Assembly: GCA_045605345.1 (NCBI GenBank)
Contig: JAZUPT010000019.1
Location: 64,603-128,602 of the forward strand
Direction of reading: 5' to 3'
Length of the DNA stretch: 64,000 nt
From: Candidatus Spyradenecus sp.
GTDB lineage: Bacteria; Verrucomicrobiota; Kiritimatiellia; RFP12; DVOR01
The position numbers were made by a program, and so were the translations under genes. The notes under the pieces were generated by a model. It saw nothing but the letters and a program-made list of their open reading frames with translations, did no database searches and had not been told where the DNA came from. Shown here in pieces: positions 24,156-54,647 of the stretch; positions within the stretch are counted from its first letter, which is position 1; each line of letters starts with the position of its first letter.

Positions 24156-24277
24156 TAAGTAACCTCCATACGAACGTAGAACAAATACATTTAATAATGT
24201 AACCTTGCGCTCATCATATCACAATCCTGCCACTTTTACTGTTCAGTTTGTTACAAACTCAAATCCAGTTTGTTACA

Positions 24278-24560
24278 TTTCATTTCTTCAATACTTTGTA
24301 CCATATTTGCCGTGCCGTAACTTATTCATTTACAATAACTTATTTTGAATATTTTATGGCAGGCAATTTTAAGTTTAAAATCAGTACAATTTGTACTATT
24401 CATGCAAAATTTAAACAGTACAATTTTTTTGGGGGCCAATTATTTAAAGGGGAAATTTCCTCTCGGGAAGAAATCTTAAACAGTACAATTTTTAGCCGGG
24501 GACTTTTTAGACCTGTTTAGAAAATTCTAGAAAATAGTACGAAGGTCCGAAGAAGTGAAA
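24278..24560. mobile_element. MITE-like non-autonomous element, copy 1 (283 bp) with terminal inverted repeats
   Basis: Near-identical to 31178-31459. Ends are TTTCATTTCTTCAATACTTTGTAC ... GTACGAAGGTCCGAAGAAGTGAAA (about 17 of 24 terminal positions inverted-complementary). Contains AGTACAATTT three times and the palindrome GGAAATTTCC. Confidence 0.6.
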
Positions 24561-24759
24561 AAGGGCGAGACCCTTGAAGAATATGGTACCATATTGATGA
24601 GGAAAATGGTACCCTATTCTTCGGCAATATTAGCCTTTTTCAAACGCAGAAAGGGTTGTTTTCGTTTTCAATATTAGCCTTTTTGATTTTGAAAATGGGT
24701 ACACTTATTTTTTTGATTTTGTGAGGGGGCGTTTCTTTCGTCAAATTAGACTCTTTTGC

Positions 24760-24823: not shown

Positions 24824-25447
24824 TTACCAGCCGATGGAAGAACCCTTGCCGCCCTGCTTTGCCATATCAACCGACTTCTGGAAGACGGTGCGACGCTGGC
24901 GATTGTTGAGGCGAATTTGGAAAGTATAATTCTTCTCACGCAGGTCTGCATTGGCAGCCGTGAGCAGATTGATGGTACCTTCCATGTAGAAGTCTGCTGC
25001 GTCATCTCTATTCACGGCGACATCATTCATGAAGGCGTCTTCCTTATTGGCAGCAATTGCTCCGGCATCGTTTGCCACGATTTCAACGAGTCCGCTATTG
25101 AGCAGGTCTTCATTGATACGGCCTGCAATCTGAGCCAGGTCAATGGACAAATCTGTTTTATTGATAATGCTGCCGACATTAATCACAGGCAGACGACCAT
25201 TCTTTTTCTCAAAATTAACAATGTGACCATTGTTGAGCATGGCTTGCGTGAGCTGACCTGCAGCATTCTTGAAGTCCTGCAAGTCCACACCCATAGAGGT
25301 GATCGCTTCTGTACCACCTGCAACAATACGACGGGGCTGCTGTGCAACACAGCCCGTCAAAAATACACCAAGTAATGCGCAACCTGCTAAAAATGCAATG
25401 TTTTTCATCTTTTGAGTTCCTTTTTTAATGTGTACGGTTTTTATCAT
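24824..25447 (-). CDS. LpoB-like lipoprotein (penicillin-binding protein activator LpoB/YcfM family)
   Basis: Lipobox LAGCALLGVFLTGC; C-terminal pattern ADFYMEGTINLL ... YTFQIRLNN, resembling LpoB. Confidence 0.55.
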   Translation of the reverse strand: MIKTVHIKKGTQKMKNIAFLAGCALLGVFLTGCVAQQPRRIVAGGTEAITSMGVDLQDFKNAAGQLTQAMLNNGHIVNFEKKNGRLPVINVGSIINKTDLSIDLAQIAGRINEDLLNSGLVEIVANDAGAIAANKEDAFMNDVAVNRDDAADFYMEGTINLLTAANADLREKNYTFQIRLNNRQRRTVFQKSVDMAKQGGKGSSIGW

Positions 25448-25485
25448 CCGATAATTTCTTCAGGGAAACTGCCGCATGAAGAAGA

Positions 25486-25908
25486 TTAGTTATCGGCATT
25501 CAACAATTTAATGCGGAAGTCCCGCGCCTCACGCGAAGGTGCAGTAAAAGAAAGACTCCGGCTTTCACGCGCTTCAAAGACATATTGCTGCCAGCCACCT
25601 CCTGCGGTGTCAATTTTCATCGCAGCAGCATCGTACCACTCCATCTGCGCATTCACCGTCAGGCGATTACGTGTAAAGTTTTCCATTTCGAGCTGCACGC
25701 GAAGTAATCCTGCTGCATTTTCTGCAGTATTAATCCGTACTACGCCAAAATCATCTGCGAAGTTCAAATCGGTATCCACGCGACTGTCACGAATAATATT
25801 CATCGCAGCAGACTTATTTGCATTTTCTACCGTATTGACAGAAACACCTGCGCAGCCCACCATCAGGAACATCCCAATGCAAGCCGCACAAAAAAGAGCT
25901 TGTTTCAT
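25486..25908 (-). CDS. YcfL-like small lipoprotein
   Basis: 140 aa, lipobox MVGCAG, size and context (next to an LpoB-like gene) as in ycfL-lpoB operons. Confidence 0.45.
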   Translation of the reverse strand: MKQALFCAACIGMFLMVGCAGVSVNTVENANKSAAMNIIRDSRVDTDLNFADDFGVVRINTAENAAGLLRVQLEMENFTRNRLTVNAQMEWYDAAAMKIDTAGGGWQQYVFEARESRSLSFTAPSREARDFRIKLLNADN

Positions 25909-25954
25909 ACGTATTCCCTTTCCTTACTGTTGTTGCTGAAATAATAACATAAAA

Positions 25955-27388
25955 TCAACGGATCTTGAATGCCATCACGCAGGCTTTACTATTCGCATGC
26001 ATCGTGCGTACACAGATGACCCACACCTCTCCGGTTTCAGGCAATGTAAGTGTTTGCAAGGTACGCCCGTCCTGCGTAATCGTTACCTGACGATCAGCCG
26101 GCATGTCAATGCGTCCCACACCGATATGCTTCGGCAAAGCATTCCAACTGCGTGTATCTGCCGTAGCTGTGCCATATTGATAAAGTGCAGTCCCAAGCAA
26201 TGCAGCAATCTGCATATAGGTATTACCACTCTGACGTGCAGCGTAATTCGCAGCATACGAAGCGACCGCTTTCGCAGTAGCAGAAGCAATCGCACGTGTC
26301 AAAATGCCAGGATAATCATTATCATATTCCTTGGCAATGACCGCCTCCATGTCGCAAACCAGCTCAGCTACGCCTACTTGACCACCTCCACGAAGGGTGG
26401 CAAAGGGGCCAACATTCTTGTCAACCTTCAACTTCGGCAAGGCGATGCTGACAAAGGAGAAGGTTCCACCAGCATAGATGGGCAGCAGGATTGAGAACTC
26501 TTCACGATAAGGCGCCATCCCATTCTCATGGAAAAGATACACCCCAGCTGGAATTTTTGCACCAGCATTGAGGCGTTCAACATCCTGACGAATAGTCTTA
26601 TTTTCAGGTGCCATTGAAAGCGCACGTGTCATGCGGAACCGCGCCATTTCACGATCTGCATCATCCACACCTGCATAAAGGTGATAAAACGCGTAGAGAT
26701 ACTCCGAGAAAGGATTCACATACAGTTCATACCCGCGTGTATCAGGTAACTCTTTCATGATTTCATCGGTGGCCTCAGCCATCTCTCCGCTCGAGGATGT
26801 CTTGTCAATACTTGCGCTATTTTCGTCTTTTTCAACCGCCTCACGCGTCTTTTCAATACGCTCGGCATTCACTGCGACAATCTCTTTCTGATGATTATCC
26901 AATCGCACCAGAGGTTGACGCGCATCAGCAATTTTACCTGCCTGTAACGCATTCAAAGCCTGGTAGGTATTCACCATCAAAATATCCGCCCCAGAACCAC
27001 GATACGGCAATGTTGCAGGATTGGTCAAAAGTGAAATTCCTTCGCGGCTGATAGAGACCTTTGCCATGTTCTGCCAATAATCATAGATGCGTTCAGCGCG
27101 ATTGAAAAAGGCCTGACTCGCCCTTTCACGCCCTGCTGCACGCGCAGTAGCACCAGCCTCTAAAAGAAGCACAAGCGTATCTCGCCCATGTTCATCTTCA
27201 GCACCATCCTCAGCCATGTCACTGATCAGTTCCACCGCCCTGTCCGTATCGCCAGTGCCAAACACCTGACGATATTCTGCAACGCGCTCTGAATAGCTCG
27301 CGCAGCCCACCATTAAACCCATCCATATCAGCGACAAAGCCACCCCAAAGGTGCGTTTTGTCCGCATCATTGCTTGAACTTTTGTCAT
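25955..27388 (-). CDS. Lipoprotein of 477 aa, the COG3014-like partner commonly found with LpoB-like and YcfL-like genes
   Basis: Lipobox LMVGCAS, helical/TPR-like N-terminal region. Translationally coupled to its neighbours. Confidence 0.4.
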   Translation of the reverse strand: MTKVQAMMRTKRTFGVALSLIWMGLMVGCASYSERVAEYRQVFGTGDTDRAVELISDMAEDGAEDEHGRDTLVLLLEAGATARAAGRERASQAFFNRAERIYDYWQNMAKVSISREGISLLTNPATLPYRGSGADILMVNTYQALNALQAGKIADARQPLVRLDNHQKEIVAVNAERIEKTREAVEKDENSASIDKTSSSGEMAEATDEIMKELPDTRGYELYVNPFSEYLYAFYHLYAGVDDADREMARFRMTRALSMAPENKTIRQDVERLNAGAKIPAGVYLFHENGMAPYREEFSILLPIYAGGTFSFVSIALPKLKVDKNVGPFATLRGGGQVGVAELVCDMEAVIAKEYDNDYPGILTRAIASATAKAVASYAANYAARQSGNTYMQIAALLGTALYQYGTATADTRSWNALPKHIGVGRIDMPADRQVTITQDGRTLQTLTLPETGEVWVICVRTMHANSKACVMAFKIR

Positions 27389-28284
27389 TCTTTCTTCTCC
27401 ATGGGTTTAACCTGCGAACCGACGGATGCACGTGTATCACCGATTAATTCGCCCTGTGCATAGTCAGATTCTACATCCGTAATCTTTACTGTGCCCATAG
27501 GACGCCCCTTAATCTTACGCGTGACACCCGTATCAGGATCGGTTACAGTGCGCGTCTTGCCATAAACTTTACAGACATCACCGACCTTAAAAATGCCTTC
27601 GCCGGCATTAATCGTAACGTAAATCTCGTCCACATCAATAATCTTGGGCGGGAAAGTTGCGGCGATTAAGAATTTCGTACTTGCCTCAGCCATTTCGCGT
27701 GTCAGTTTGGGCAACATTGAATCAAACCGTCCAAAACGACGATTCGAGGTGTTGGAAACATCGGCAATATCCACCTTTTCAAGTTGCTGATTCGACGCAT
27801 CAATAATTTCAGAAGTGCTTGTATCAATCACACGCATCTGAGTAGAGAGTTGATAACGTACCTTCGCACGATGTACACCATTGAAAACAGCTACATCCGT
27901 GACCTGTTGGAAAGCATCAATTGAGACGATTAAAGCATACTCTCCACCAATCATCTCATTAGCCTGAGCACCTTTTTTCGCCACCAACCCTGCTTCATCA
28001 AGAGCCTGTTCACGAAGCAACTCTTCCAAAGCATCCGAACGCTCCAGAACACGATACTTGCGAGAGGAAACAATCTCAGAGATCAGATGTTCGTCCAAAC
28101 TCTCAATCACGCGCCCCAAAAGCTGCGCACGTTCATCATGCGCCACCTCAGCCTTCAGCGAATCATTCGCGGTAACGCGCGCAACATAGAGCGTCTTCTG
28201 CTGCGCCAAAGCAATCACCGGCATCATCACCGCCAGTGCTAACCATTTTAAACTGCCAGATTTCATCGTTAATCCCCCTTTCAA
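27385..28284 (-). CDS. CsgG/HfaB-family lipoprotein (curli-type secretion channel-like)
   Basis: KTLYVARVTANDSL ... ISEIVSSRKYRVLERSDALEELLREQALDEAGL ... GGEYALIVSIDAFQ follows the CsgG family pattern. Its start overlaps the upstream gene's stop. Confidence 0.6.
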   Translation of the reverse strand: MKGGLTMKSGSLKWLALAVMMPVIALAQQKTLYVARVTANDSLKAEVAHDERAQLLGRVIESLDEHLISEIVSSRKYRVLERSDALEELLREQALDEAGLVAKKGAQANEMIGGEYALIVSIDAFQQVTDVAVFNGVHRAKVRYQLSTQMRVIDTSTSEIIDASNQQLEKVDIADVSNTSNRRFGRFDSMLPKLTREMAEASTKFLIAATFPPKIIDVDEIYVTINAGEGIFKVGDVCKVYGKTRTVTDPDTGVTRKIKGRPMGTVKITDVESDYAQGELIGDTRASVGSQVKPMEKKE

Positions 28285-28285
28285 A

Positions 28286-29530
28286 TTACTTCATTAACCA
28301 GTCAATAAACATCGGCGCCTGCCCTCCGACCACATCTGGCAGTTTATCCGCCTTAATCTGCAAACCACTCTGCTCAAGCATCTTGGCATGGCCCAAACGC
28401 TGAGCCATCTCCGCCTGACTCTGTTCGCGTTCAATCGTCAAATCATGCATAAACTGAATCGAATCCTTTACACGGTTGTATTCCTCATCTGTCATCCGCA
28501 TATTCACCGAAAGCGCCAACCCTTCACTCGGCACAACAGACATCGTGACATCATCATACCCCTCACGCGAGAAGCGCACCTTATGTACACCGCGAGAGAG
28601 ACGTAATGTACACCCAGTCGTACCACGCGCCACCCCATCGACCTCTACTGTCGCAGCCACCTCCGTGGGAATACGATCATTCAAAATGGAATTATCCTGT
28701 TTCAACGCCGGCAAGTAAATTGGCTTATTATTCATATCGTAAGCCAAAACCGTAAACGAAACCGGAATGCCACTCTTCTCTAAAGAAGCCTCACGCCACG
28801 CAGGAGCCTTCTCACGAATCTCTTCTGCCATCGCTGCTGCAAGTTCTTCTTCTAAACCATCGGCGTACTCGCCAAATTCCTCATCGGTAAAGGCCGTCTT
28901 ACGCATTGAAATCTGCGCCTGTAACGTACCCCCATCAAAAGCACTGCCCGTGTAAACATCCGCAATGCGATACGATGCAGAAATCTTGTAAATTTCATTT
29001 ACAATCTGTACATCCGAATTATCCGTTGCCTTACCAAAACGACGATCCCGCAATCGACGCACATTTTTTGTAAACCTGTCAAGCGTCACCGTCAGCAGAT
29101 AATCTGCGCCAGCATTCGCTGCCAAATGCATCCGTGATGTATCCCCCTTCAACTTCTCATCCTGCGTCGGTAAAGCCCGCCCCTTCTCATCATATTCCCG
29201 GCGAGACTCCATAGCAAAAACGGCATCATCCATATCGATGACCTCCACATTCGCTCCGGCAATCTGTGCCCCCACCTGAGAAGCCAAAACCTTACAAACC
29301 TTATCAAATTCCTTTTTACCCGTAATATTTTTCACCATCAACGCCACCACATGGGCCCTCGGCTCTGCCGGTTTCTGCGCCTTCACCTCTACATCATACG
29401 CAGCTTGCACCTTCAATTCCGTGCCGTCTTTCAACCGCAAAGAGACCGGATCTGCTGTAGCCGTCACCTTCTCCGCGCACAAAATAGAGGCGGCAACCAT
29501 TCCGTAAAACAAACAAAGCGACCGTTTCAT
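28286..29530 (-). CDS. Secreted protein with a C-terminal PEGA domain
   Basis: C-terminal VEVDGVARGTTGCTLRLSRGVHKVRFSREGYDDVTMSV is a PEGA-type motif; N-terminal signal peptide present. Confidence 0.55.
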   Translation of the reverse strand: MKRSLCLFYGMVAASILCAEKVTATADPVSLRLKDGTELKVQAAYDVEVKAQKPAEPRAHVVALMVKNITGKKEFDKVCKVLASQVGAQIAGANVEVIDMDDAVFAMESRREYDEKGRALPTQDEKLKGDTSRMHLAANAGADYLLTVTLDRFTKNVRRLRDRRFGKATDNSDVQIVNEIYKISASYRIADVYTGSAFDGGTLQAQISMRKTAFTDEEFGEYADGLEEELAAAMAEEIREKAPAWREASLEKSGIPVSFTVLAYDMNNKPIYLPALKQDNSILNDRIPTEVAATVEVDGVARGTTGCTLRLSRGVHKVRFSREGYDDVTMSVVPSEGLALSVNMRMTDEEYNRVKDSIQFMHDLTIEREQSQAEMAQRLGHAKMLEQSGLQIKADKLPDVVGGQAPMFIDWLMK

Positions 29531-29550
29531 CTCCTCTTTCCTCCTTACAA

Positions 29551-30099
29551 TTAAAAAGAACCATAAATGATGGGGAAAAAGCCTGGCGTTGTATTCGTAA
29601 TCACATTCACTACGCCAATCTGAATCCCACGTGCACCCTCTGCATAATTAATCACACCAATCTGCAAACCTTTAAGGTAATACGCACAGTTAATCACGCC
29701 AATCTGCAAACCACGCACACGCGAAACACTGTTCAGTGCACCCACCTGCAAACCTGCAAAATCCGCTTCCACAGTATTGAGTAACCCCACATCCAAGCCC
29801 TTCATGTTCACACACCGCCCATAAATCGGTGAAATGCGAATCCCACGCACATCCCAATCACCCCAGGGCAACTGAATCGGCGCAAGAATCCCAAGCGACA
29901 ATGGGGTCGTATTGCCATCCATCAAACTGAAATCTGCGCCACTTCCTCCTGAAGGTAAAGGTTTCGGCTGATCAGAAGGTTGACGCGTCGCAGTCCAATG
30001 ATACGTTGCCCCTTCCTGCCCGCTCCCTTCAGCAAAAAGTGTCCCACCCGAAAAACAAATCGTACTCACCAAAACAAAGCATAAAACCCATTTAAACAT
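29551..30099 (-). CDS. Secreted repeat protein with GlQiGxxN repeats
   Basis: Signal peptide; repeats GLQVGALN, GLQIGVIN, GLQIGVIN, GIQIGVVN. Confidence 0.5.
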   Translation of the reverse strand: MFKWVLCFVLVSTICFSGGTLFAEGSGQEGATYHWTATRQPSDQPKPLPSGGSGADFSLMDGNTTPLSLGILAPIQLPWGDWDVRGIRISPIYGRCVNMKGLDVGLLNTVEADFAGLQVGALNSVSRVRGLQIGVINCAYYLKGLQIGVINYAEGARGIQIGVVNVITNTTPGFFPIIYGSF

Positions 30100-30221
30100 C
30101 TTTCACCTCAACCTTCATCACTCCACCAATGTACACCATGTACATTACCCTAAAGAGCGATTCTGCAAAAAGAGTACATCATTTTCAGACCACTGTCAAT
30201 ACAAATCCACTCCGCACCCAC

Positions 30222-30496
30222 CATCCCGACATTATCGTACCCACCCGGCCACTGCGCCGGGTGGAGCCTTTCGCTTTAAGTTCACTTAGAACAAGGTTTA
30301 TCGTGAACGCCCTGACACTGTGACTGGAGTCCCCTCTCACACATCACCCCACGATTATCGTACCCACTCGGCCACTGCGCTGGGTGGAATCTTTCGGCTT
30401 TAAATTCACTGGGAACTGGCGGACCTTATCTGCTTCCGCTCTCTGCTAGCGAGTCTCAATCGCCTTTCGGCTTTAAGTTCACTTGGATCTGTACCA
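30222..30496. repeat. Irregular repeat array of units ATTATCGTACCCACYCGGCCACTGCGCYGGGTGGA (an 8-bp stem hairpin) plus CTTTCGGCTTTAARTTCACT
   Basis: The hairpin-containing unit occurs twice (30236-30290 and 30354-30410). The CTTTCGGCTTTAAGTTCACT motif occurs three times (about 30264, 30394 and 30464). Confidence 0.6.
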
Positions 30497-30879
30497 TAAT
30501 TAAGCTATTGATTCCAAGGGGTTTATTTTGGTGATTTGAAGGGAAACAGGGGTTTTTGAGCATTTTCGTCTCCCTTCAGGAAGATTCTCTATGAGTACTC
30601 CTCAGTTGTCAGTGAGCGCTACGCGCAGGACTGCATGTTTTTTAACACAAGAACGCAAGGTCTTGTTCCGTCGCGCAACTCGGCGCGATGAAAAACCTTG
30701 CTTTGCAAGTTTTTTCCCGAGTATGCCGACGGAACGCTGATATCTTACGGAACGCTGATATCTTAAAGATGGTCTTCACAACAAAAGAGTGGTGCACCAC
30801 GCCTTTCCTTACCCCTCTCTTCTTACTCATCACTCATCCCTTCTCTCTTCTCCCTTCTCTCCCCTCGCCACTCCCCGTG

Positions 30880-31100
30880 AGCACCTGTAAGCACATCCGC
30901 AGGATGTGCAGCGTGCAGGACTCAGTCCTGCCGCGGGGTGTGGGGCTGCGCAAGCCCCACATCTCTCCTCTAATCTACTAATCCACAGCGAGCACCCGCT
31001 CGCGTAATCCACAGCACCGTCAGGTGCGGATATATGCGCCCGATCCCGTAGGGCTGGGAAATCCACAGGGCCGACAGGCCCCTGCGGCGCAGCCGCTCAG
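30880..31100. repeat. Array of roughly eight short GC-rich hairpins, three of them preceded by (T/A)AATCCACAG
   Basis: Hairpins at about 30891-30909 (GCACATCC/GGATGTGC), 30915-30931 (GCAGGAC/GTCCTGC), 30940-30960 (GTGGGGCT/AGCCCCAC), 30989-31001 (CGAGC/GCTCG), 31013-31026 (GCACC/GGTGC), 31066-31079 (GGGCC/GGCCC) and 31084-31096 (GCGGC/GCCGC). AATCCACAG occurs at 30980, 31005 and 31058. A CT-rich tract sits at 30841-30875. Confidence 0.6.
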
Positions 31101-31177
31101 AAAAATAGCCTTTTTGAAAAAGAAAAAGGGTTGTTTTGAAGAAGCGTTAGGGAAGCCTTCATTTTCAATAAGGGCGA

Positions 31178-31459
31178 TTTCATTTCTTCAATACTTTGTA
31201 CTATATTTGCCGTGCCGTAACTTATTCATTTACAATAACTTATTTTGAATATTTTAGGGTAGGCAATTTTAAGCTTAAAATCAGTACAATTTGTACTATT
31301 CATGCAAAATTTAAACAGTACAATTTTTTGGGGGCCAATTATTTAAAGAGGAAATTTCCTCTCGGGAAGAAATCTTAAACAGTACAATTTTTAGCCGGGG
31401 ACTTTTTAGACTTGTTTAGAAAATTCTAGAAAATAGTACGAAGGTCCGAAGAAGTGAAA
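31178..31459. mobile_element. MITE-like element, copy 2 (282 bp)
   Basis: Near-identical direct copy of 24278-24560. It is flanked on the right by TGTTACAAACTCAAATTCAGTTT, matching the left flank of copy 1. Confidence 0.6.
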
Positions 31460-32051
31460 TGTTACAAACTCAAATTCAGTTTCTAAGAAACTTAGAGTCA
31501 ATTTCGCCTCTTTTTGAGTTTTGGCTCAATGAAACCTCCTCCTAAAGTTTGCAGAATGGAGGAAATGTTTTGGCATATGCGGTGGAAAATAATCGCGCAC
31601 AGTTGAGGGGCTGATTGACCATTTTTATACCTTATATGATGGAACCGAAATTGCGATTTCCTCGCAATGGGGACGCGCGTGGGGGAATGGGAATCTGCCT
31701 CAATTCCTTGCACGAGCGCATGAGTTAGGCTATGTTTTTGAAGAAGTACCGCCTGCTTCAATGGGCGGTGTTGAATAAATCGTAGAGCGATTAGTTTGTT
31801 TCTGGGGACGCGTGGGGGCGAGGCTTCCACGCGTTTTATTTACGCAGTACTGGAGTCGTAATAAAACAGTGGTTATGCTCTATTGTGATTTTAAAGCGTA
31901 TAACGGCGCCGCGATGCACTATAAATAAGTGCCGTGGATGCCGTTGGATGTGTTATCTCCGTGCTCCCGTTAGAGGGGGAGGTCGAAATCGGAGGTGTCA
32001 ATTAGTGTTAAACCTTGAGGTAGCACTAATGGCCCCTTGGATGAAACAGTC

Positions 32052-32732
32052 TTACTTGAAGAGGGTGCGTTGCGCAGGGATGTACTTGCGTGACGGGTAG
32101 GTGGTTTGTTTACGAATCAAGTTTAAATCATTGGGCGTGAGGGGGACTCGTTTAAACTTGGGGTTTTCGTAAAAAATGGTTGCGGCGGGGAAGAGGTCGC
32201 CAAATGCGGCATTCGCATGTGTGATGGTGCCATCCTTCTCGAAGGTAAAGGCTTGGTAGACCCAATGATTGTGTTGGCTCTTTTCGAAGTCATTAAAGAA
32301 GGTGGAGTGTAAGAGGTAAATTTTTCCATTCACTTGCACCAAGTCGGTGAGTTTAATGTTGTAGCCTTCAACGACTGTCTCAATGCGTCCTTGTTTGCCG
32401 CCAGAAAGAATGAAATGCGCACTGTATCCGTCAGCATTTAATCCACATCCCATCCAGGGCAAAAGAAAGACATAGTCGTCCACTTCGTCGCCATTGAGGT
32501 CAAGCATCCCGCCTTCGCAATACTGCGCGCTATCAATGTATGTAATTGTTTCACACTCTAACAAACTTAAAAAAGCGGCGATCGTTTCGCTTGAAAAGGT
32601 GGTCATTTCTACAGGGGTGGCCTTCACCTTTGGCGCCCAAGGGGTCTTCCACGCAAAGAGTGTGGTCATACAGCCCATGGCTAAAAATACTGCACTTGCA
32701 CAAATAAAACGTAAAAACGACTGTTGCATCAC
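32052..32732 (-). CDS. Hypothetical secreted protein of 226 aa
   Basis: Signal peptide (AVFLAMGCMTTLFA); no recognisable motif. Confidence 0.45.
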   Translation of the reverse strand: MMQQSFLRFICASAVFLAMGCMTTLFAWKTPWAPKVKATPVEMTTFSSETIAAFLSLLECETITYIDSAQYCEGGMLDLNGDEVDDYVFLLPWMGCGLNADGYSAHFILSGGKQGRIETVVEGYNIKLTDLVQVNGKIYLLHSTFFNDFEKSQHNHWVYQAFTFEKDGTITHANAAFGDLFPAATIFYENPKFKRVPLTPNDLNLIRKQTTYPSRKYIPAQRTLFK

Positions 32733-34994: not shown

Positions 34995-35145
34995 GCAGTT
35001 GATGGGGATGGCGCGGGGATAGAGCAGTTTCGGTCTGCGCTTGAGCCGACACTTAGAAGGTGGGGATGGCGCGGGGATAGAGCAGTGTCGGTCTGCGATT
35101 GAGCCGAATATTAGAAGATGGAGATGGCGCGGAGGATGTCGTTTA
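34995..35145. repeat. Tandem ~60-bp repeat (about 2.3 copies) overlapping the 3' end of dus
   Basis: TGGGGATGGCGCGGGGATAGAGCAGTTTCGGTCTGCGCTTGAGCCGACACTTAGAAGG repeated. The last partial copy encodes the Dus C-terminus (...RAISIF). Confidence 0.7.
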
Positions 35146-36073
35146 ATGAATGGAGATTCATGAGGTTGCCGCGAAGGGTGTTGGCGCCAGGGAGCCCTTT
35201 GAAGTAGCGGAAGAGGTGGCGGCGGAAGGTGAGCACGGTGGCTTCTTCGGGGGTGAGGCGTGAGAAGGCGCAGGCTTTTTCGCGGTAACGAAGTTCTAAG
35301 GCAAGGTGGGCCTCGGCAAGCGGACGGGGTGCAACGTGTTCAAAGTTAAAGACACTGGGTGTTTCTAATGCCGCACGTGCAATTAAAATTGCCTTCACAC
35401 CCGTAGCCGCCATTGCTTCCGCTGAGGCGCGATCAACCACAGAGCCATTCCCGAAGATGGGCAAGTGGGTGGCTTCAACGGCCGCCTTTAGTGTTTCCAA
35501 ATGGACGGTGCCGGCATGTCCTTGCGAGGTGTAGCGCGCGTGAAGGCTAACCGAGGTCGTGCCCGCCGCTTCCATGCGTTGTAAGACCTCCTGCCAAACG
35601 GGCACCTGTGGGTTGGGGCCGAGGCGTGTCTTTACACTGACAGGGAGATTGACCGCCTTTACGACCGATGAAATGATTGCTTCAAGACGCGGTAAATCCT
35701 TGAGGAGTGCAGAGCCCGCGCCTTGCGCGGTGATGCGTGGCACAGGGCACCCAGCATTAATATCAATGCCCTCAAAGCGCCCCATGTCCGCAACAATGTG
35801 TGCCGCCTCCGCCAATCGTACAGGGTCATGGCCGTAAAGGTGGGCCCACACATGACGCTCTTCGGGAAAGGTTTCCAACAAAAAGAGCGTCTTTGGAGAG
35901 CGTCGACAGATTCCCTCGGCATTGACCATTTCCGTGTAGGTGCGTTGTGCTCCATGTTGTTCGCACAAAATACGCATCGGTGGCGTGGTAAACTCCGCCA
36001 TTGGGGCAAGGTAAAGAGGAGGGAGGTCTGTCATTGTGATTGATTCACGCTTAACGCCGCTTAAGCCAACCAA
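35111..36073 (-). CDS. dus: tRNA-dihydrouridine synthase
   Basis: LAPMAEFTTPPMRILC ... GIDINAGCPVPRI ... SVKTRLG, the Dus family FMN-binding TIM barrel. Confidence 0.8.
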   Translation of the reverse strand: MVGLSGVKRESITMTDLPPLYLAPMAEFTTPPMRILCEQHGAQRTYTEMVNAEGICRRSPKTLFLLETFPEERHVWAHLYGHDPVRLAEAAHIVADMGRFEGIDINAGCPVPRITAQGAGSALLKDLPRLEAIISSVVKAVNLPVSVKTRLGPNPQVPVWQEVLQRMEAAGTTSVSLHARYTSQGHAGTVHLETLKAAVEATHLPIFGNGSVVDRASAEAMAATGVKAILIARAALETPSVFNFEHVAPRPLAEAHLALELRYREKACAFSRLTPEEATVLTFRRHLFRYFKGLPGANTLRGNLMNLHSLNDILRAISIF

Positions 36074-43353: not shown

Positions 43354-43609
43354 TATACCATAAAAAGCGCGCCCGCGAGAGCACGCTCATTGGAACTAGA
43401 ATCGCTCACGAATGAATAATCTTTGGCGACTGGGATTTAGCCTCCTGCAACTACCAACTGTAGTAAAGCCACTGCTAATTTCTTCTCTCTACACACACTA
43501 AGAGTGTAGCAAAAGGAAGACAAGTCGTCAACTCCGTTCACTCAAGTCAGTTAAACTCCCGCGGAAAGTAGGCGGCTTTCCCTTGGGAAAATGGGCGACT
43601 TTAGCCACC

Positions 43610-43700
43610 CGATTTCGTCTATTTTGCTCACCAATTTCGCCTATATTGCTCACCAACTTCGCTTATTTTGCAACTCAATTTCACTTATATTGACCCGGAA
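43610..43700. promoter_or_regulatory. About 3.5 tandem 23-bp repeats, plus three TTGTTGATAACT motifs further downstream (43729-43955)
   Basis: TTCGTCTATTTTGCTCACCAA / TTCGCCTATATTGCTCACCAA / CTTCGCTTATTTTGCAACTCAA / TTTCACTTATATTGACC, in the AT-rich 900-bp region upstream of the giant gene. Confidence 0.4.
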
Positions 43701-44304
43701 TTCCTTTAGCTTTCCCCAAAAAAGCTCCCAATTGTTGATAACTTTTCTACCACTTCTACCCCAAATTTTCGCAAGGAAGCCGCTGTAGCGGAGTTGATTT
43801 CGCCCCATTTTTGCATTATCTCTTTATTTCTCAATGCGTTATGCAGTTTCAACAAGGTTGAGCAAAAGTGCCGAAAATCTGCCAATCCGTAGAAGAATTT
43901 TCCAAAAACTGCGTCAAAAAAACCGCATTGTTGATAACTCGTTGATAACTCAAAAAAGTTTTCAACAAGCGAAAAATCGATGAAATTTTCGAAAAAGTGA
44001 TGGTTTCGCGCACGAGATTTTAAGGGACAAAAGGGATGAAAGGGAGGAGGAAAGAGACAGTTACCGCGAACGCAGTTTTAGAGAAGTGACAATCAGGTCC
44101 ATGAGCCCCCGCTCAAACAAGTTCCTTTTCCTATTTCAAATAGTCTCTTTTAATTGTGATTTTCGCCTTTCAAAGATGCTTCCTCCTTGGCGAGCTGCGG
44201 ATGATCCATTCGCGCTTGGGAAACATTTCTATCAACTTCTCGTATGTATAATTATTGATTTATAAATCATTTTGAGTTATAGTGGTAATAGGATTGAGGT
44301 GAGC

Positions 44305-50300: not shown

Positions 50301-50532
50301 CCTTCACATACCGGCCCTCACGCCTGCAATGGGAAGACCAGAAAATGCGACATTTTCGGATGTCGCCTCACTCTATCCGATTGACATGATTACAGTCAAA
50401 AACAATGGATGGGGGCGAGAACATTTTGAGTACAAAGGCCGTTGGCTTCATAGTGATGTCAAGAATATGGCATATTTTTATGTACATGAGCTTTTTCAAA
50501 CACTTAATTCTCTTGTGAAAAGGAGCAAATAA
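44305..50532 (+). CDS. Giant secreted multidomain protein: TSP3 calcium-binding repeats, three NIDO-like domains and a C-terminal alpha/beta-hydrolase (lipase/esterase-like) domain
   Basis: Signal peptide MNTFFLFRATITLLFAIFTYHTLFA, with RBS GAGGTGA before ATG 44305. There are at least 15 DxDxDGxxDxxE repeats (for example DTDGDGLADGLE, DSDGDGLIDGEE). Three paralogous domains of about 200 aa carry an FxFPxxxYxKIxIxxDGxIxLFND-type core. The C-terminal region has an LHGF oxyanion motif, an AHSLGN nucleophile elbow, and downstream D/H candidates. GC is much lower than the core genes. Confidence 0.8.
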   Translation: MNTFFLFRATITLLFAIFTYHTLFAEGDFLGPPLPNLSPEDETELPNEGSDDNEDAPVEENTPTSLALIDYSSFFNHYDWSTWDERIATWYSNCHDAALMTPPLPLGTRMHHALGVEEVFPPFDEFCPNLEAIVVGDIQTWQVRVEEHINAEGERSFWTLIGNVIVHKLPSPMTFNPTNWICSLYEDNLPTWLFEDEEQTTEWLSIRDRSRLAITLTILPTGMLSTYNTVMIELAEAERVKREEAQQDPTAFAFTRIDVSDKDVFFEFYNPLNVRLNLLTRVRLDEPWALFGEVGETSSLGYTSITFPRQEKNDPPFFRIVDAVTDTDGDGLADGLELNYFKSDPTKQDSSGSGISDWDKVYVYKLDPSVRDSDGDGLIDGEEIHIGTNPQVADSDGDGLNDAEEVNSLQPAVAFTWIPITASILTNPTTECIEIILPSAVSFAGHLYDKVIIDTVGKLTLSHTSIGDSVDELIISGHSNHPYLSIDAESDILFEATTFNDVPCFVFSFVNLIFDDERKSSNHITFQIVLSSMFPNRVWINYLDIGKDKWNNGAIAQIQNKTKKSSITFPYLNEGTLTTQISLEGRFGYGTNPHLPDSDADGLLDGVEIKEAGSSPLIADTDKDSLSDGKEFCHYHTSPVLIDTDGDTLPDAWEIQHGLDPCSTNGNHGRLGDPDGDRLPNELEMEYQTSPTLADSDRDGLSDSHEVGQITTENVNETRSGTVLHSLSHSSNADSLVATFSLPSAIRFNTTSYSKILISLDGHILLFNDDENFSELSYSNIKLTGLKSCATALIIAAFWDDLYYFGNETRITLEETEDSYLVRYQDVGLYDFKSNQSVVGTFVITLPKNANPSISITYSNFSSSFTCQSATIGVRTASLSRDIGHKVYQYTFNQAVVLNNTTVNFLIGSGTDPNLSDTDNDGILDSEELAINTSPFSADDDLDGLPDGWEIQYSLNPKFASGNHGANGDLDGDFLRNLDEYRAGSSPLHSDTDNDGLLDIQEFGGVALQYNASWITTPSSMTNIMSRFKSTSTGYVTIDCSDAPFQFLNTNYTTMSINLNGRIDLFNDDVSPSGLATKGPKDYYTCESQQNHILLAPASGDLFLSSSSSILYGETVLNGKVYVVVEYQQMGDYWNNADLANHQISAQILIPRVISPIEPIIINYKNVAGNLSRERLSVGFTTPTHSKGRGFVFSENRPLSSPESVALFLGIGTSASNTDSDCDGISDGDEYNYGTNAIQPDTDGDGLSDGWEMQHAYNPLVHNETDAIVGNERDADPDEDGLTNQEEECFKTVPKQTDSDGDGVSDKTEIDQCSHPMNAQDEGIPMTYYPVTFEFGDWSTSHSEKYYLTIRPLGEAASNESKIGWVNLEYGQVETKIALLKKGTTYEVSLTHASSNQSEPDLDYTLNIKSPNGSGLIITDAITSPLGAFAESEWDSSDRLFKLTLAGGDIYCDINRDGQIEQAVDGIATRSGKKVLHHWSNDDYDVGNCSDDKGATDIPKGNQSIFNGNDLNYRDGTVNGRADLLDFVPLWFDIADLINACPMTQDYTYTLSSTLEVGIVFTELAANDVFSWQTSDVITYDKQGDETPSHEASVYPIDDAGLELNQTLLNHLTTGIVMLEGNEPGEGELKLTVLKDDILISEIAFQFKIVEVENMYRTIDITSMPHTVAKPSAPTGLADSYFAENTPYLFFLHGFNVTPNTARGWQAEMFKRLWQTGCDMKFVGVTWFGEEGVFEAFRYQENVRNALLSGESFAALMSHYSQDKTVVMAHSLGNMVVSSAFQFYGATCDTFMMLNAAIPSEAFGATVSNADEYVNCFESEQLFVPESWHSYPCKSWSVNWHKLFSADEKESKLTWRNAFKDVPTKTTVYNFYSSEDEVFELHHTVPSMLSGTEFDLAWPYIDWTFPYLHLLSSIRVEASRYAWHKQEVFKGMNGPIGTKGGGWSFHCRERGFKVYPTGDDARNATDTRLRTRPVFSTRETPFLRNVSQYSDEEYFTLLALHIPALTPAMGRPENATFSDVASLYPIDMITVKNNGWGREHFEYKGRWLHSDVKNMAYFYVHELFQTLNSLVKRSK

Positions 50533-51593
50533 TGAAAATGTTTTATCACATTATGATTTTGTCATTATTACTTATGACAGCATGTGCAAACACATATGTT
50601 CCCAAAGCCAAAGTTACAATTCGTTCGGTGAACCAAGATGGGAAACCAATTGTAAACGAACCTGTGCGAATAGGATTTTCGTCATGGGGAGGAGTCTATG
50701 GAAAAACAGATCAGAATGGTTGCTTTACTGCAGAAGGACGACCGACGAGTGATTATCTTTTTGCAATCGGCCGGATGAAGGTAGATGAGGAATCCCCAAA
50801 GTATTATGCAACCTATTTTAGTAAAGATATCGCCCACTGGAAAGATTATCCCAAAGACGGCAAGTGGAAACCGTGGAATGAAACGATTGAAGTCGTCGTA
50901 AAAGAAAAAATAAATCCTATTCCAATGTATGCAAATGGGATTAAATTTAAAACAAATATCCCAGTCATTGATGAGTGGGTAGGATATGATTTCGAATACA
51001 ATGACTGGGTCGCTCCTCATGGCAAGGGGATTGTCGCAGATATTGAAGTTTCTCTTTCCGAAGAAAAGCCAACCGAAGAGGATGAAATTGAAGCATTGAA
51101 GATTCGTTTTCCGTATCCCCTCGCAGGCGCATACGTTATGAAAAAAGACCTCAATTGTGACTTTAAGTCCGTGTACCACGCAAATCCCAACGCAACGTAT
51201 GAACAAGAGATAACATGGTATAAAGCATATAAAATGATGGATGACATCAACCCTCATGCTTGGACAGAAAAAGAACGTTATTTTAAAGTAAGCAGAATGG
51301 TTAAATACAATCTCCTCTCCAAAGACGATTATCTCATTTTTCGTACACGAACAAAAGTGGACGAAAATGGGAATCTCATTGAAGCCCGTTATGGAAAAAT
51401 TTATGGACCTATTGAGTTTCGGTTAAATCTAACAGATGAAAGGCCGTCCTATCGCAAGCGTGTCACCCTCTGGAACTATTATTTCAATCCTACTGTTAAT
51501 GACACGAATCTTGAATATGATTTAAAACGTAATTTACTCAGTGACAAGGTTAAACCCAGAAAACGTGTAAACAACTCTCGTGTGTGGCCATAA
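50532..51593 (+). CDS. Lipoprotein paralog 1 with an N-terminal CarboxypepD_reg-like beta-sandwich; candidate immunity protein
   Basis: Lipobox LLLMTACAN. Its ATG overlaps the giant gene's stop (TAATG). It is about 90% identical overall to the next gene. Confidence 0.7.
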   Translation: MKMFYHIMILSLLLMTACANTYVPKAKVTIRSVNQDGKPIVNEPVRIGFSSWGGVYGKTDQNGCFTAEGRPTSDYLFAIGRMKVDEESPKYYATYFSKDIAHWKDYPKDGKWKPWNETIEVVVKEKINPIPMYANGIKFKTNIPVIDEWVGYDFEYNDWVAPHGKGIVADIEVSLSEEKPTEEDEIEALKIRFPYPLAGAYVMKKDLNCDFKSVYHANPNATYEQEITWYKAYKMMDDINPHAWTEKERYFKVSRMVKYNLLSKDDYLIFRTRTKVDENGNLIEARYGKIYGPIEFRLNLTDERPSYRKRVTLWNYYFNPTVNDTNLEYDLKRNLLSDKVKPRKRVNNSRVWP

Positions 51594-51649
51594 TCGCATC
51601 AAATCGTAACCATAGAAGATTGTAGAAATGGCTCATTGCCACCTTAACA

Positions 51650-51742
51650 TTGGCTTCATAGTGACGTCAAGAATATGGCTTATTTTTATATCCATCCGCT
51701 CTTTTCTCACATAGTAGAAATTCTTCAGAGAGGCTCCAAATG
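51650..51742 (+). repeat. Orphan copy of the giant gene's 3' end (encodes WLHSDVKNMAYFYIHPLFSHIVEILQRGSK*)
   Basis: TTGGCTTCATAGTGACGTCAAGAATATGGCTTATTTTTAT matches 50442-50482. It is in frame and ends with a TGA that overlaps the ATG of paralog 2. Confidence 0.75.
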
Positions 51743-52786
51743 AAAAAACACGTAACACTTGTTCTGTCTTTTTTATTTCTTTTAACTGCTTGTGCCCACA
51801 ACTACATTCCCGAAGCCAAGGTAACATTTAAGGTTGTTGATATGCATGGAAATCCAATCCCAAACGAAGATGCCACATTAGGTTTTTCACCCACGATTGG
51901 ATTTCATGGGAAAACGGATGAGAATGGTTATTTTACAGGCCGTGGTCGAACAGAAAGTGATTACGTCTTTTCTGTTGCTCGCGAATCAAACAAATACTAT
52001 CGAACCCGTTTTAGTAAAGATATCGCCCACTGGAAAGATTATCCCAAAGACGGCAAGTGGAAACCGTGGAATGAGACCATTAAAATCGTTGTAAAAGAAG
52101 AAATAAATCCTATTCCAATGTATGCAAATGGGATTAATTTTAAAACAAATATCCCTGTCGTTGATGAGTGGGTAGGATATGATTTCGAATACAATGACTG
52201 GGTCGCTCCTCATGGCAAGGGGATTGTTGCAGATATTGAAGTTTCTCTTTCCGAAGAAAAGCCAACCGAAGAGGATGAAATTGAAACGTTGAAGATTCGT
52301 TTCCCGTATCCCCTCGCAGGTGCATACGTTATGAAAAAAGACCTCAATTGTGACCTTAAGTCCGTGTACCACGCAAATCCTAACGCAACGTATGAACAAG
52401 AGATCACATGGTATAAAGCATATAAAATGATGGATGACATCAACCCTCATGCTTGGACAGAAAAAGAACGTTATTTTAAAGTAAGTAGAATGGTTAAATA
52501 CAATCTCCTCTCCAAAGACGATTATCTCATTTTTCGTACACGAACAAAAGTGGACGAAAATGGGAATCTCATTGAAGCCCGTTATGGAAAAATTTATGGA
52601 CCCATTGAGTTTCGGTTAAATCTAACAGATGAAAGACCGTCCTATCGCAAGCGTGTCACCCTCTGGAACTATTATCTCAATCCTACTGTTAATGACACGA
52701 ATCTTGAATATGATTCAAAGCGTAATTTACTCATTGACAAGGTCAAACCCAGAGAACGTGTGAACTACTCTGGTGTGTGGCCATAA
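51740..52786 (+). CDS. Lipoprotein paralog 2
   Basis: Lipobox LLLTACAH. Residues about 100-348 are nearly identical to paralog 1, whereas the N-terminal ~90 residues have diverged to roughly 55% identity. Confidence 0.7.
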   Translation: MKKHVTLVLSFLFLLTACAHNYIPEAKVTFKVVDMHGNPIPNEDATLGFSPTIGFHGKTDENGYFTGRGRTESDYVFSVARESNKYYRTRFSKDIAHWKDYPKDGKWKPWNETIKIVVKEEINPIPMYANGINFKTNIPVVDEWVGYDFEYNDWVAPHGKGIVADIEVSLSEEKPTEEDEIETLKIRFPYPLAGAYVMKKDLNCDLKSVYHANPNATYEQEITWYKAYKMMDDINPHAWTEKERYFKVSRMVKYNLLSKDDYLIFRTRTKVDENGNLIEARYGKIYGPIEFRLNLTDERPSYRKRVTLWNYYLNPTVNDTNLEYDSKRNLLIDKVKPRERVNYSGVWP

Positions 52787-52849
52787 TCGCATCGAATCGT
52801 AACCACAGAAGATTGTAGAAATGGCTCATCAAAACATTGCCCCTTAATA

Positions 52850-52900
52850 TTGGCTTCATAGTGACGTCAAGAATATGGCGTATTTTTATGTTTGTTGATT
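52850..52900 (+). repeat. Second orphan copy of the giant gene's 3' end (WLHSDVKNMAYFYVC*)
   Basis: TTGGCTTCATAGTGACGTCAAGAATATGGCGTATTTTTATG. The preceding 55-bp spacer is also shared with 51594-51649. Confidence 0.75.
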
Positions 52901-52959
52901 GAAAAAGTAAGTGGGCAGGTGGAACGAAATTACCTGTCCACTTACTTTCTTAATCAGCC

Positions 52960-53090
52960 AATTTCTTTTGACGAGTCATATTTATTCAACGATGCGGCTT
53001 TTGAAAATGAAGGTTTGACAAGGGTGGGGGCTTTTGATACCCTCTCAACGAAAGTACGTTTGATGCATTTTTATTAGGATAGCGTAGGCG
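52960..53090 (+). repeat. 130-bp direct repeat, copy A: a gene 3'-end fragment encoding ...ISFDESYLFNDAAFENEGLTRVGAFDTLSTKVRLMHFY*
   Basis: About 97% identical to 54518-54647. Together they bracket the fic gene. Confidence 0.7.
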
Positions 53091-53175
53091 TGTCGCTTGC
53101 TGCAGTCAACCTTGCAGGCGTTGAAGATTGAATTTCGCAGACGCCTGATGACTTAGTGACGAGGAAGTAAGTGGG

Positions 53176-54288: not shown

Positions 54289-54517
54289 TTGGTGCAGAAA
54301 ATAATGCATAACGCCTTGGTAATCAACAATTTCACATTGACAGTAAAATTAACAATTGACTGGCAGTCCAAGCAAAACTATCCGTGCTCGCAGGGAAATT
54401 AAAGCCTCTTGGATTCGCGACTCATCCACACTTGAATGCACCGCATGATAGACTTGTAGAAAGAAATATAACCGATGCTTGTGTGAGAATACCGATATGC
54501 TTTTTGGTGTAGAGTGG

Positions 54518-54647
54518 AATTTCTTTTGACGAGTCATACTTATTCAACGAAGCGGCTTTTGAAAATGAAGGTTTGACAAGGGTGGGGGCTTTTGATACCC
54601 TCTCAACGAAAGTACGTTTGATGCATTTTTATAGGATAGCGTAGGCG
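54518..54647 (+). repeat. 130-bp direct repeat, copy B
   Basis: Same coding-fragment sequence as copy A, here preceded by a stop and ending ...HFYRIA*. Confidence 0.7.

Follow-up and report, generated by a model that had tools for sequence, protein, structure and literature searches.

A hairpin cluster in a Candidatus Spyradenecus contig as a probable composite of dispersed modular palindromic repeats in gut Kiritimatiellae

The present study analyzes a cluster of short GC-rich hairpins at positions 30880-31100 of a 64-kb stretch of a Candidatus Spyradenecus contig (the whole stretch is hereafter the window). The cluster is confirmed as real, its modules recur at many unrelated intergenic sites in both orientations and differ between orthologous loci, and its stems have been kept by compensatory change, with the hairpins optimized on one strand, the + strand of the window. 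Patterns detected are consistent with a lineage-specific family of modular palindromic repeats dispersed in gut Kiritimatiellae, of which the cluster would be one composite copy and which would be similar in kind to repetitive extragenic palindromes (REP), REP doublets forming hairpins (REPIN), and bacterial interspersed mosaic elements (BIME), a reading to which we would assign a probability of about 0.72. Such a composite would have been assembled from a limited set of parts, i.e. a three-hairpin block beside a purine/pyrimidine tract, cassettes built on the linker TAATCCACAG, and a GCGGC hairpin.

The hairpin cluster

An exhaustive scan for non-overlapping hairpins with perfect stems of at least 5 bp and loops of 3-6 nt identified seven GC-rich hairpins within 30880-31100, and one imperfect hairpin lies among them:

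30891-30909, + strand, perfect hairpin GCACATCC-GCA-GGATGTGC
30915-30931, + strand, perfect hairpin GCAGGAC-TCA-GTCCTGC
30939-30961, + strand, perfect hairpin TGTGGGGCT-GCGCA-AGCCCCACA
30988-31003, + strand, perfect hairpin GCGAGC-ACCC-GCTCGC
31014-31027, + strand, perfect hairpin GCACC-GTCA-GGTGC
31039-31058, + strand, the one imperfect hairpin, CCCGATCCC-GTA-GGGCTGGG
31068-31081, + strand, perfect hairpin GGGCC-GACA-GGCCC
31084-31096, + strand, perfect hairpin GCGGC-GCA-GCCGC

This bears out a sequence-only reading of the window, which had described a dense array of about eight hairpins here, three of them introduced by a recurring 9-mer. The 9-mer AATCCACAG does occur exactly at 30980, 31006, and 31060, that is three times in 90 nt, and the window's two further exact copies (7288 and 38415) are unrelated. 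Some details needed correction: the first hairpin has a GCA rather than a GC loop, the first cassette hairpin is GCGAGC-ACCC-GCTCGC and not CGAGC-ACC-GCTCG, and the CT-only tract said to precede the hairpins is present but spans 30 nt (30837-30866), not 35, within an 83-nt stretch that is 87% pyrimidine.

With 7-8 hairpins and 45-50 paired bp, the region is the densest 220-bp stretch of the window, where the mean per 220 bp is 0.89 hairpins and 4.8 paired bp; 1000 dinucleotide shuffles of the region averaged 0.96 hairpins and never exceeded five. Folding of both strands with RNAfold, proposed earlier as a check, gave z scores of -6.4 (+ strand) and -3.7 (- strand), and none of 200 shuffles was as stable on either strand. 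No Rfam family reached its gathering threshold (the best match in the region scored 20 bits where 47 were required), and relaxing the cutoff to E<=10 added nothing of relevance to the hairpin region. There was no hit in a tRNA/tmRNA scan and no match by BLAST to phage and plasmid sequences, while a promoter and terminator consensus scan of 30000-32100 performed at chance level and reported none of the hairpins.

The hairpins belong to a composite with the following parts, in which loci of related contigs are designated L001, L007, and so on:

30796-30878, + strand, pyrimidine-rich tract, 87% C/T, containing the CT-only run (30837-30866), the window's longest homopurine/homopyrimidine run
30868-30964, + strand, three-hairpin block of 97 nt, comprising the tail CCGTGAGCACC, H3 (30891-30909), H2 (30915-30931), and H1 (30939-30961), found with covariance model R1
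30965-31083, + strand, linker-plus-hairpin cassettes, with homologous arrays in L015, L009 (two sites), L001/L016, and L022
31084-31096, + strand, GCGGC-GCA-GCCGC hairpin, a separate recurring module closing the cassette array, its 13-mer or the complement being present in L001, L008, and L009
31101-31137, no strand assigned, degenerate AT-rich terminator-like palindrome AATATTAGCCTTTTT..AAAGGGTT of repeat family D6

The block scored 111 bits (E=1e-23) with R1 and is the window's sole copy; R1 was built on the complementary "GA" strand and the match is therefore reported on the - strand. Read on the GA strand, a unit consists of a purine tract, H1 (GTGGGGC..GCCCCAC and/or GCAGGGG..CCCCTGC), H2 (GCAGGAC-TGA-GTCCTGC), H3 (GC(A/G)CATCC..GGATG(T/C)GC), and the tail TTTTACTGGTGCTCACGG. 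The cassettes, all in one orientation, begin with a degenerate TAATCTAC followed by (T/A)AATCCACAG at 30979/30980, 31005/31006, and 31060, these motifs preceding the hairpins at 30988-31003, 31014-31027, and 31068-31081, and a longer cassette module, CGGATATATGCGCCCGATCCCGTAGGGCTGGGA, bears the imperfect hairpin at 31039-31058. Copies of the D6 palindrome occur at 24626, 24670, and 31101, the last forming the right boundary of the composite, and a palindrome of this type with a perfect 13-bp stem is present in L007 at 1249-1283.

Recurrence of the modules at other loci

A search for other instances, which had also been proposed, was positive for both the block and the cassettes at many loci. 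An exact 22-mer of the block matched 18 contigs of one metagenome assembly with unrelated flanks, the match lying within 300 nt of a contig end in 13 of the 18, and one contig held three tandem copies. R1 detected about 29 strong copies in those 18 contigs and a single one in the window; three loci from other assemblies yielded a further 11 strong copies, or 12 if all those above 30 bits are counted. The total is about 40 copies on about 21 contigs of related Kiritimatiellae, many of them from a single metagenome and related by descent. Copies occur as singletons, as direct tandem arrays, and as inverted doublets, in both orientations: the window copy stands alone, inverted copies are separated by about 1 kb in L007, and direct tandem arrays with a repeat period of 126-164 nt are present in L011, L014, L021, and L032. 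Elsewhere most copies adjoin purine/pyrimidine tracts, which vary in length, as judged from the flanks of 24 copies.

Spurious open reading frames (ORFs) called across the block served as a further probe. The database "homologues" of the block amount to eight unnamed ORFs in public assemblies, and the two that were looked up (P0002 and P0005) are called across other copies of it. These two look-ups led to a 207-kb contig, in which three copies in direct tandem closely follow the rplL terminator, and to a 259-kb contig (L033), in which seven copies fall within one 20-kb stretch as three intergenic clusters, where + and - copies 150-250 nt apart form inverted doublets with the purine tract on the outside (GA tract-block ... 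block-CT tract).

All block copies are extragenic, lying between called or long ORFs, and the ORFs that overlap them are short and without Pfam hits among the window ORFs tested, with none recorded for P0002 or P0005. The genes beside them are unrelated housekeeping genes, including those for BioG, thioredoxin, a HAD hydrolase, SpoU, LpxI, ribosomal proteins, and fatty-acid (fab) and arginine (arg) genes, and orientation relative to the nearest gene is mixed (11 vs 6) with no significant rule. In scans of viral contigs the only match to the H2 18-mer was an unrelated phage terminator, none was found to the pattern of the H2-to-H3 junction, and paired TAATCCACAG matched only unrelated coding repeats or iterons.

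Units with AATCCACAG were found elsewhere as six in L015, three to four at the second L009 site, and one in L022, and three stand beside the block in L001, L009, and L016. The linker core ATCCACAG is nearly invariant across cassettes, whereas the hairpins that follow it vary within an array and are drawn from few types: GGGC-GNA-GCCC or GGGCC-GCA-GGCCC; GCATGC-NNNN-GCATGC; CGAGC..GCTCG; CACC-GTCA-GG..; GCGAAGC; and TGGC-GAA-GCCA. Comparison of the window with L009 and L015 shows covariation in the hairpin of a longer module, CGGAYATATGCGCCCGA..CTGGGA. The GCGGC-GCA-GCCGC hairpin ends the TAATCCACAG cassette array of both L009 and the window and lies near blocks in L001 and L008, and in equivalent composites of these last two loci an alternative linker, CCCAGAAC, replaces TAATCCACAG. 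The hairpin at 30988-31003 had no separate match elsewhere, its relatives in L001 and L015 being imperfect. Thus the statement that each hairpin has a different stem holds within the array, but every type recurs at other loci in relatives, and the window array is therefore a mosaic from a limited repertoire. The sequence-only reading had set the array apart from REP and BIME elements because of its differing stems, and that exclusion was the wrong way round, since a limited set of modules recurring at many unrelated intergenic sites is the REP/BIME situation.

The small-module repertoire of this lineage exceeds the set in the window. One further module is built around CTCATTC (CCAGTC-GCA-GACTGG CTCATTC GCC-GTAA-GGC), with stems that vary between copies, and a second has the form GTGCCGCAGGGTG..CACCCTGC; such modules recur among L001 (1-240), L007 (2330-2400), L010, and L015 (3940-4010).

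Differences between related loci

The closest relative is L001, in which the 414-aa PEGA-domain protein that served as query is 79% identical. Upstream of its version of the operon are counterparts of the three left-hand hairpins, about 90% identical, together with TAATCCACAG-type units and a purine/pyrimidine tract, but the block is inverted relative to the operon, with tract and units on swapped sides. No block copy was detected with R1 in L002 and L003, which are more distant relatives, and the L002 spacer is just 245 bp there. The inversion in L001 and the absence from L002 and L003 argue against a leader conserved with the operon. In L007, collinearity with the window extends from a clustered regularly interspaced short palindromic repeat (CRISPR) leader to the block; this locus lacks the TAATCCACAG cassettes and has a second, inverted block beyond an intact CRISPR array.

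A possible pair of filled and empty sites is provided by L012, which is orthologous to window positions 43650-44080 at 85-94% identity. There a purine tract runs into a block, and at the equivalent site of the window the tract (44038-44057) is followed by unique sequence and no block; because the L012 contig ends before the second junction, the pair is suggestive, not clean. The tract at 44038-44057 is the window's only other homopurine run of at least 20 nt, which suggests that purine tracts may be a preferred neighborhood or target of the block. Exact-protein look-ups for strain variants of the hairpin locus gave only two short Logan contigs, both ending before the repeats.

Covariation and strand preference

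Covariation in homologous loci, a third check proposed from the sequence, was found as compensatory stem changes. RNAalifold recovers all three block hairpins, and in a 22-copy alignment (A2) 96% of cells are paired, with compensatory change in four pairs only. Double-change cells numbered 22 compared with 8.4 in column shuffles, and sliding the partners collapsed the pairing. H2 is invariant because it was the search anchor, an ascertainment effect, and H3 shows a compensatory indel pair (GCACATCC/GGATGTGC vs GCATCC/GGATGC); in general the copies differ by indels of 1-2 nt and by paired stem changes. The earlier view that the hairpins are non-coding, selected for pairing over sequence, and joined by a constant motif is upheld.

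The pairing is not symmetrical between strands. The CT strand, which is the + strand of the window, folds more stably in 20 of 24 block copies and has 42 G-U pairs compared with 19 on the other strand. Across the three block hairpins, loops read on the CT strand are of the form G..A in 32 and T..C in one, with variation among GCA, GTA, GAA, GTCA, GTTA, and GCCA, and cassette loops read on the TAATCCACAG strand are G..A in 11 of 16 and T..C in none, mostly as C-GNA-G triloops. Among the cassette hairpins is GCGAAGC, known to form an exceptionally stable DNA mini-hairpin, and the tetraloops are GNYA, unlike the GNRA and UNCG loops that are usual where selection acts on RNA. These patterns constitute moderate evidence that the hairpins matter in one strand when it is present as single-stranded nucleic acid; for DNA over RNA the evidence is weak.

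Surroundings of the cluster

The hairpins sit in a 1.95-kb ORF-poor gap (30100-32051) between a 226-aa gene and a minus-strand operon at 24824-30099 with lipoprotein, PEGA, CsgG-like, LpoB-like, and DUF1425 genes, the nearest relatives of which are in gut or rumen metagenome-assembled genomes. The gap is a patchwork of a decayed CRISPR array with its leader, a tandem duplication (18 bp, 30729-30765), the pyrimidine tract, the hairpins, the AT-rich palindrome, and a longer repeat designated R. Two of these parts stand outside the composite:

30215-30583, - strand, decayed CRISPR array with leader, assigned by homology to intact arrays in L007 and L008
31177-31461, + strand, 284-bp repeat R with terminal inverted repeats TTTCAYTTCTTC, second copy at 24277-24561; context, outside the hairpin family

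The decayed array stands between the composite and the operon, 400 bp from the hairpins, and consists of three degenerate repeats (about 30261-30294, 30385-30418, and 30452-30490) and a leader (30491-30583). Its repeat is the 37-nt GTTCCAAGTGAACTTAAAGCCGAAAGGCTATTGAGAC, read on the minus strand, and L007 (5 repeats) and L008 (7 repeats) have intact arrays that share this repeat as well as the leader, trailer, and terminator; Rfam CRISPR-DR matches to the decayed array are weak, and no cas genes were found in Pfam scans of the window ORFs checked. Two of the window "spacers" duplicate each other and carry a ATTATCGTA-plus-hairpin module. In L007 a complete CRISPR unit at 1380-2600 (leader, 5 repeats, and rho-independent terminator) lies between two inverted three-hairpin blocks with their purine/pyrimidine tracts facing outward, an arrangement resembling long terminal inverted repeats.

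The R copies are direct repeats, 92-99% identical, with the lipoprotein operon and the hairpin region enclosed between them. They have reciprocal flanks (TGTTACA|R|AAGGGCGA ... AAGGGCGA|R|TGTTACA), as would be expected if a circle with one R copy had recombined into another copy, and the 6.9 kb between them has lower GC content and reversed GC skew relative to the surroundings. Repeats of ATGGTACCATATT with copies of the AT-rich palindrome (AATATTAGCCTTTTT..AAAAAGGCTAATA, perfect in L007) occur at 24575-24706 and 31101-31137, i.e. 3' of the LpoB-like gene and beside the hairpin composite; these elements may be bidirectional terminators and make up another small repeat family, common to L007 and L022.

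Around the possible empty site, 43600-44100 (L012 200-700) is an AT-rich intergenic region upstream of a gene for a 2086-aa TSP3-repeat protein, with 3.7 copies of the 22-bp repeat ATTTCGCYTATTTTGCTCACCA, several GTTGATAAC boxes, and no change in the sign of GC skew; its appearance is that of an iteron or binding-site cluster. L008 has a dense set of similar TTATCAAC boxes at 800-1150, beside a helix-turn-helix gene. Downstream (3') of the 2086-aa gene, 50440-54640 holds three to four paralogs, each of about 350 aa, and repeated stretches of 55-300 bp in the intergenic DNA that are 76-98% identical and recur about every 1.2 kb. A 58-bp tandem repeat (2.3 copies, 88% matches) at 35001-35137 lies at the start or just upstream of a dihydrouridine synthase gene (35111-36073, minus strand).

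Discussion

Several explanations other than dispersed repeats could be offered for the cluster. It could be that these are multi-copy structured RNA elements of the + (CT) strand, serving as stabilizing stem-loops, processed small RNAs, or transcription barriers such as terminators or insulators. Strand-asymmetric folding with its excess of G-U wobble pairs on one strand and the compensatory stem changes would suit RNA. TTTT after H3 on the GA strand of most copies and a C/U tract after H1 on the CT strand also lend a weak resemblance to a bidirectional terminator. An RNA role would not account, however, for the lack of any Rfam match even at E<=10, for the lack of a conserved promoter, or for the failure of the consensus terminator scan to pick up any of these hairpins; relative to flanking genes the copies point both ways (11 vs 6), several copies lie beyond the canonical terminator of the upstream gene so that their transcription would need read-through, and the loops are GNA and GNYA and not the GNRA or UNCG typical of RNA-level selection, a comparison based on established hairpin thermodynamics. 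We consider the RNA explanation unlikely. Somewhat less likely again is that the TAATCCACAG linker is a protein-binding site, the cassettes being arrays of such sites spaced by inert hairpins in a locus that titrates DnaA or another regulator. The core ATCCACAG is nearly invariant while the hairpins vary, the same 10-mer forms iteron-like or DnaA-box-like direct repeats in unrelated phage contigs, and TAATCCACAG matches 8 of 9 positions of the DnaA-box consensus TTATCCACA, from which the box of this phylum may differ. Against this explanation, CCCAGAAC stands in for TAATCCACAG in the L001 and L008 composites, and the hairpins between motifs are conserved by compensatory change in a strand-specific manner, unlike inert spacers. 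An origin of replication was rejected, since the GC skew to either side of the locus is positive and turns negative only within the operon island.

The sequence-only reading had offered two functions that fared poorly. One, a structured cis-regulatory leader of the lipoprotein/CsgG-like operon, to which an invertible promoter switch may be added, is largely refuted and now seems very improbable: the array does lie on the upstream side of the operon, in an orientation that L001 does not share with the window, but it is 780-1000 bp from the first gene with the decayed CRISPR array and leader in between, there are no flanking inverted repeats of at least 14 nt to mediate inversion, the L001 modules are re-ordered beyond a simple inversion, the 245-bp L002 spacer is without the array, L003 lacks the block as well, and the same modules adjoin dozens of unrelated genes. 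The other, attC-like recombination sites of an integron-like cassette array, would explain variable sequence with conserved hairpin geometry, which is the attC principle, and yet can be given almost no weight, because attC sites are defined by RYYYAAC ... GTTRRRY cores, a palindrome of 57-141 nt, and intI, and here 30850-31120 contains neither RYYYAAC nor GTTRRRY, the hairpins span 13-23 nt, no cassette ORFs lie between them, and Pfam scans of the window ORFs checked gave no integrase domain. Decayed coding sequence with chance palindromes is refuted. Two ORFs of 97 and 78 aa do overlap the region, but they have no Pfam hit, the reading frame does not survive the differences between copies, database "homologues" are limited to the eight unnamed ORFs, called across block copies where looked up, and hairpin density is far above that of shuffles.

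If the cluster is instead a composite of dispersed repeats, as we favor, the units could spread and persist as hairpins in single-stranded nucleic acid, most likely single-stranded DNA, and would be recognized in trans by an enzyme such as an HUH/Y1 transposase of the RAYT (REP-associated tyrosine transposase) or IS200 type, with recombination and slippage between copies assisting the spread. The window copy might then have no dedicated role, other than possibly as a structural or termination barrier between neighboring units. Several observations weigh against this reading. Copy counts are not independent, given their shared metagenome and descent, and a single copy is present in the 64-kb window. 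The hairpins are not preceded by a constant GT(A/G)G head, GTAG occurring between H3 and H2 in some copies only (ACGCTACGC variants) and not in the window copy; tandem arrays are direct and do not alternate as in BIMEs. A tblastn search of about 330 kb with an IS200 TnpA query found no transposase, which at that size is weak evidence. Mobilization of the IS200/IS605 type predicts a lagging-strand-template bias, and hairpin strand relative to local GC skew is 8 vs 6, without bias. For want of the GT(A/G)G head, alternation, a Y1-like match, and GC-skew bias, mobilization by way of single-stranded DNA is inferred by analogy, and membership of the REP/RAYT family is not claimed.

It is also conceivable, although improbable, that the cassettes of linker plus mini-hairpin, with C-GNA-G loops kept on one strand, are a distinct kind of element and not a REP analogue. 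They could then be substrates or products of an undescribed enzyme acting on single-stranded DNA, or DnaA-box-like TAATCCACA sites spaced by extruded DNA mini-hairpins. Elements of this kind, as inverted composites, can bracket other DNA and might even move it; in L007 a complete CRISPR unit stands between two inverted blocks.

If the repeat reading is correct, the modules form an undescribed family of intergenic palindromic mosaic repeats in the under-studied gut phylum Kiritimatiellota; a literature search combining Kiritimatiellae and REP found no paper. No new regulatory RNA or recombination system is revealed. The implications are partly practical, in that such repeats break metagenome assemblies, with most copies at contig ends, cause spurious ORF calls, of which eight are deposited as "proteins" in public collections, and could serve for strain typing. 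Furthermore, G..A loops on one strand together with cassettes of constant linker and variable hairpin would offer a clean system in which to ask what maintains hairpins, whether a transposase acting on single-stranded DNA, replication, or RNA function. The repeats also illustrate how a CRISPR array may come to lie between inverted repeats.

Comparison with known systems

The array shares with CRISPR the alternation of a constant motif with variable segments. It differs in that the constant part of a cassette is 9-12 nt and the variable parts are palindromes of 7-20 nt of recurring types and not unique spacers; identical repeats of 23-50 nt with unique spacers, which define CRISPR, do not occur in 30965-31100 and are attributable to the neighboring 30261-30490 through its homology with L007 and L008. 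Pneumococcal BOX elements (boxA-boxB(n)-boxC), enterobacterial repetitive intergenic consensus (ERIC) sequences, and Correia elements are likewise modular and intergenic, with variable numbers of internal modules and stable predicted structure, but there is no sequence similarity to BOX, and BOX modules are 45-59 nt compared with the mini-hairpins of 13-25 nt and block of 97 nt seen here. Palindrome-associated transposable elements (PATEs), which are non-autonomous derivatives of IS200/IS605, and HUH/Y1 substrates (see also PMC6006769) resemble the present units in their strand-specific subterminal DNA hairpins and in having no unit-level terminal inverted repeats and no visible target-site duplication. 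The present units differ in that neither a transposase nor a lagging-strand-template bias was detected, and in lacking defined left and right ends and a conserved cleavage tetranucleotide.

A RAYT-associated REP is recognized by a RAYT gene, encoding a Y1 transposase, flanked by two inverted REPs; no RAYT or Y1-like ORF was found here in the tblastn search of about 330 kb with IS200 TnpA. For the cassettes of linker plus variable mini-hairpin we know of no REP or BIME counterpart. Criteria for REPs and BIMEs were taken from Nunvar et al. 2010 (PMC2817692), where REPs have a GT(A/G)G head 5' of a palindrome and more than 100 copies per genome and BIMEs consist of regularly spaced palindromic units in alternating orientation. 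The present family differs from these in lacking a constant head and alternating orientation, in having as its core block three different hairpins in fixed order with purine/pyrimidine tracts alongside, and in its host, since REP/RAYT systems were defined in gammaproteobacteria and Kiritimatiellota is a distant phylum. As for copy number, there are 7 in one 20-kb stretch of the 259-kb contig, about 29 in 18 contigs of one metagenome, and one in the 64-kb window. The stem-loop palindrome is present as hairpins of 13-23 nt with 96% of cells paired in 22 copies, the location is extragenic, and unit types with linkers, as in BIMEs, are represented by the block, the TAATCCACAG cassettes, the GCGGC hairpin, and the CCCAGAAC composites of L001 and L008. 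Like the REP, REPIN, and BIME sequences of E. coli, Pseudomonas, and Stenotrophomonas (PMC2817692; Bertels & Rainey 2011, PMC3116915), these are short GC-rich extragenic palindromes in many copies over the contigs scanned, their clusters are mosaics of palindromic unit types with short constant linkers, complementary mutations keep their palindromy, copies lie beside unrelated genes in either orientation, and at some loci (L033 and L007) they form inverted doublets as REPINs do.

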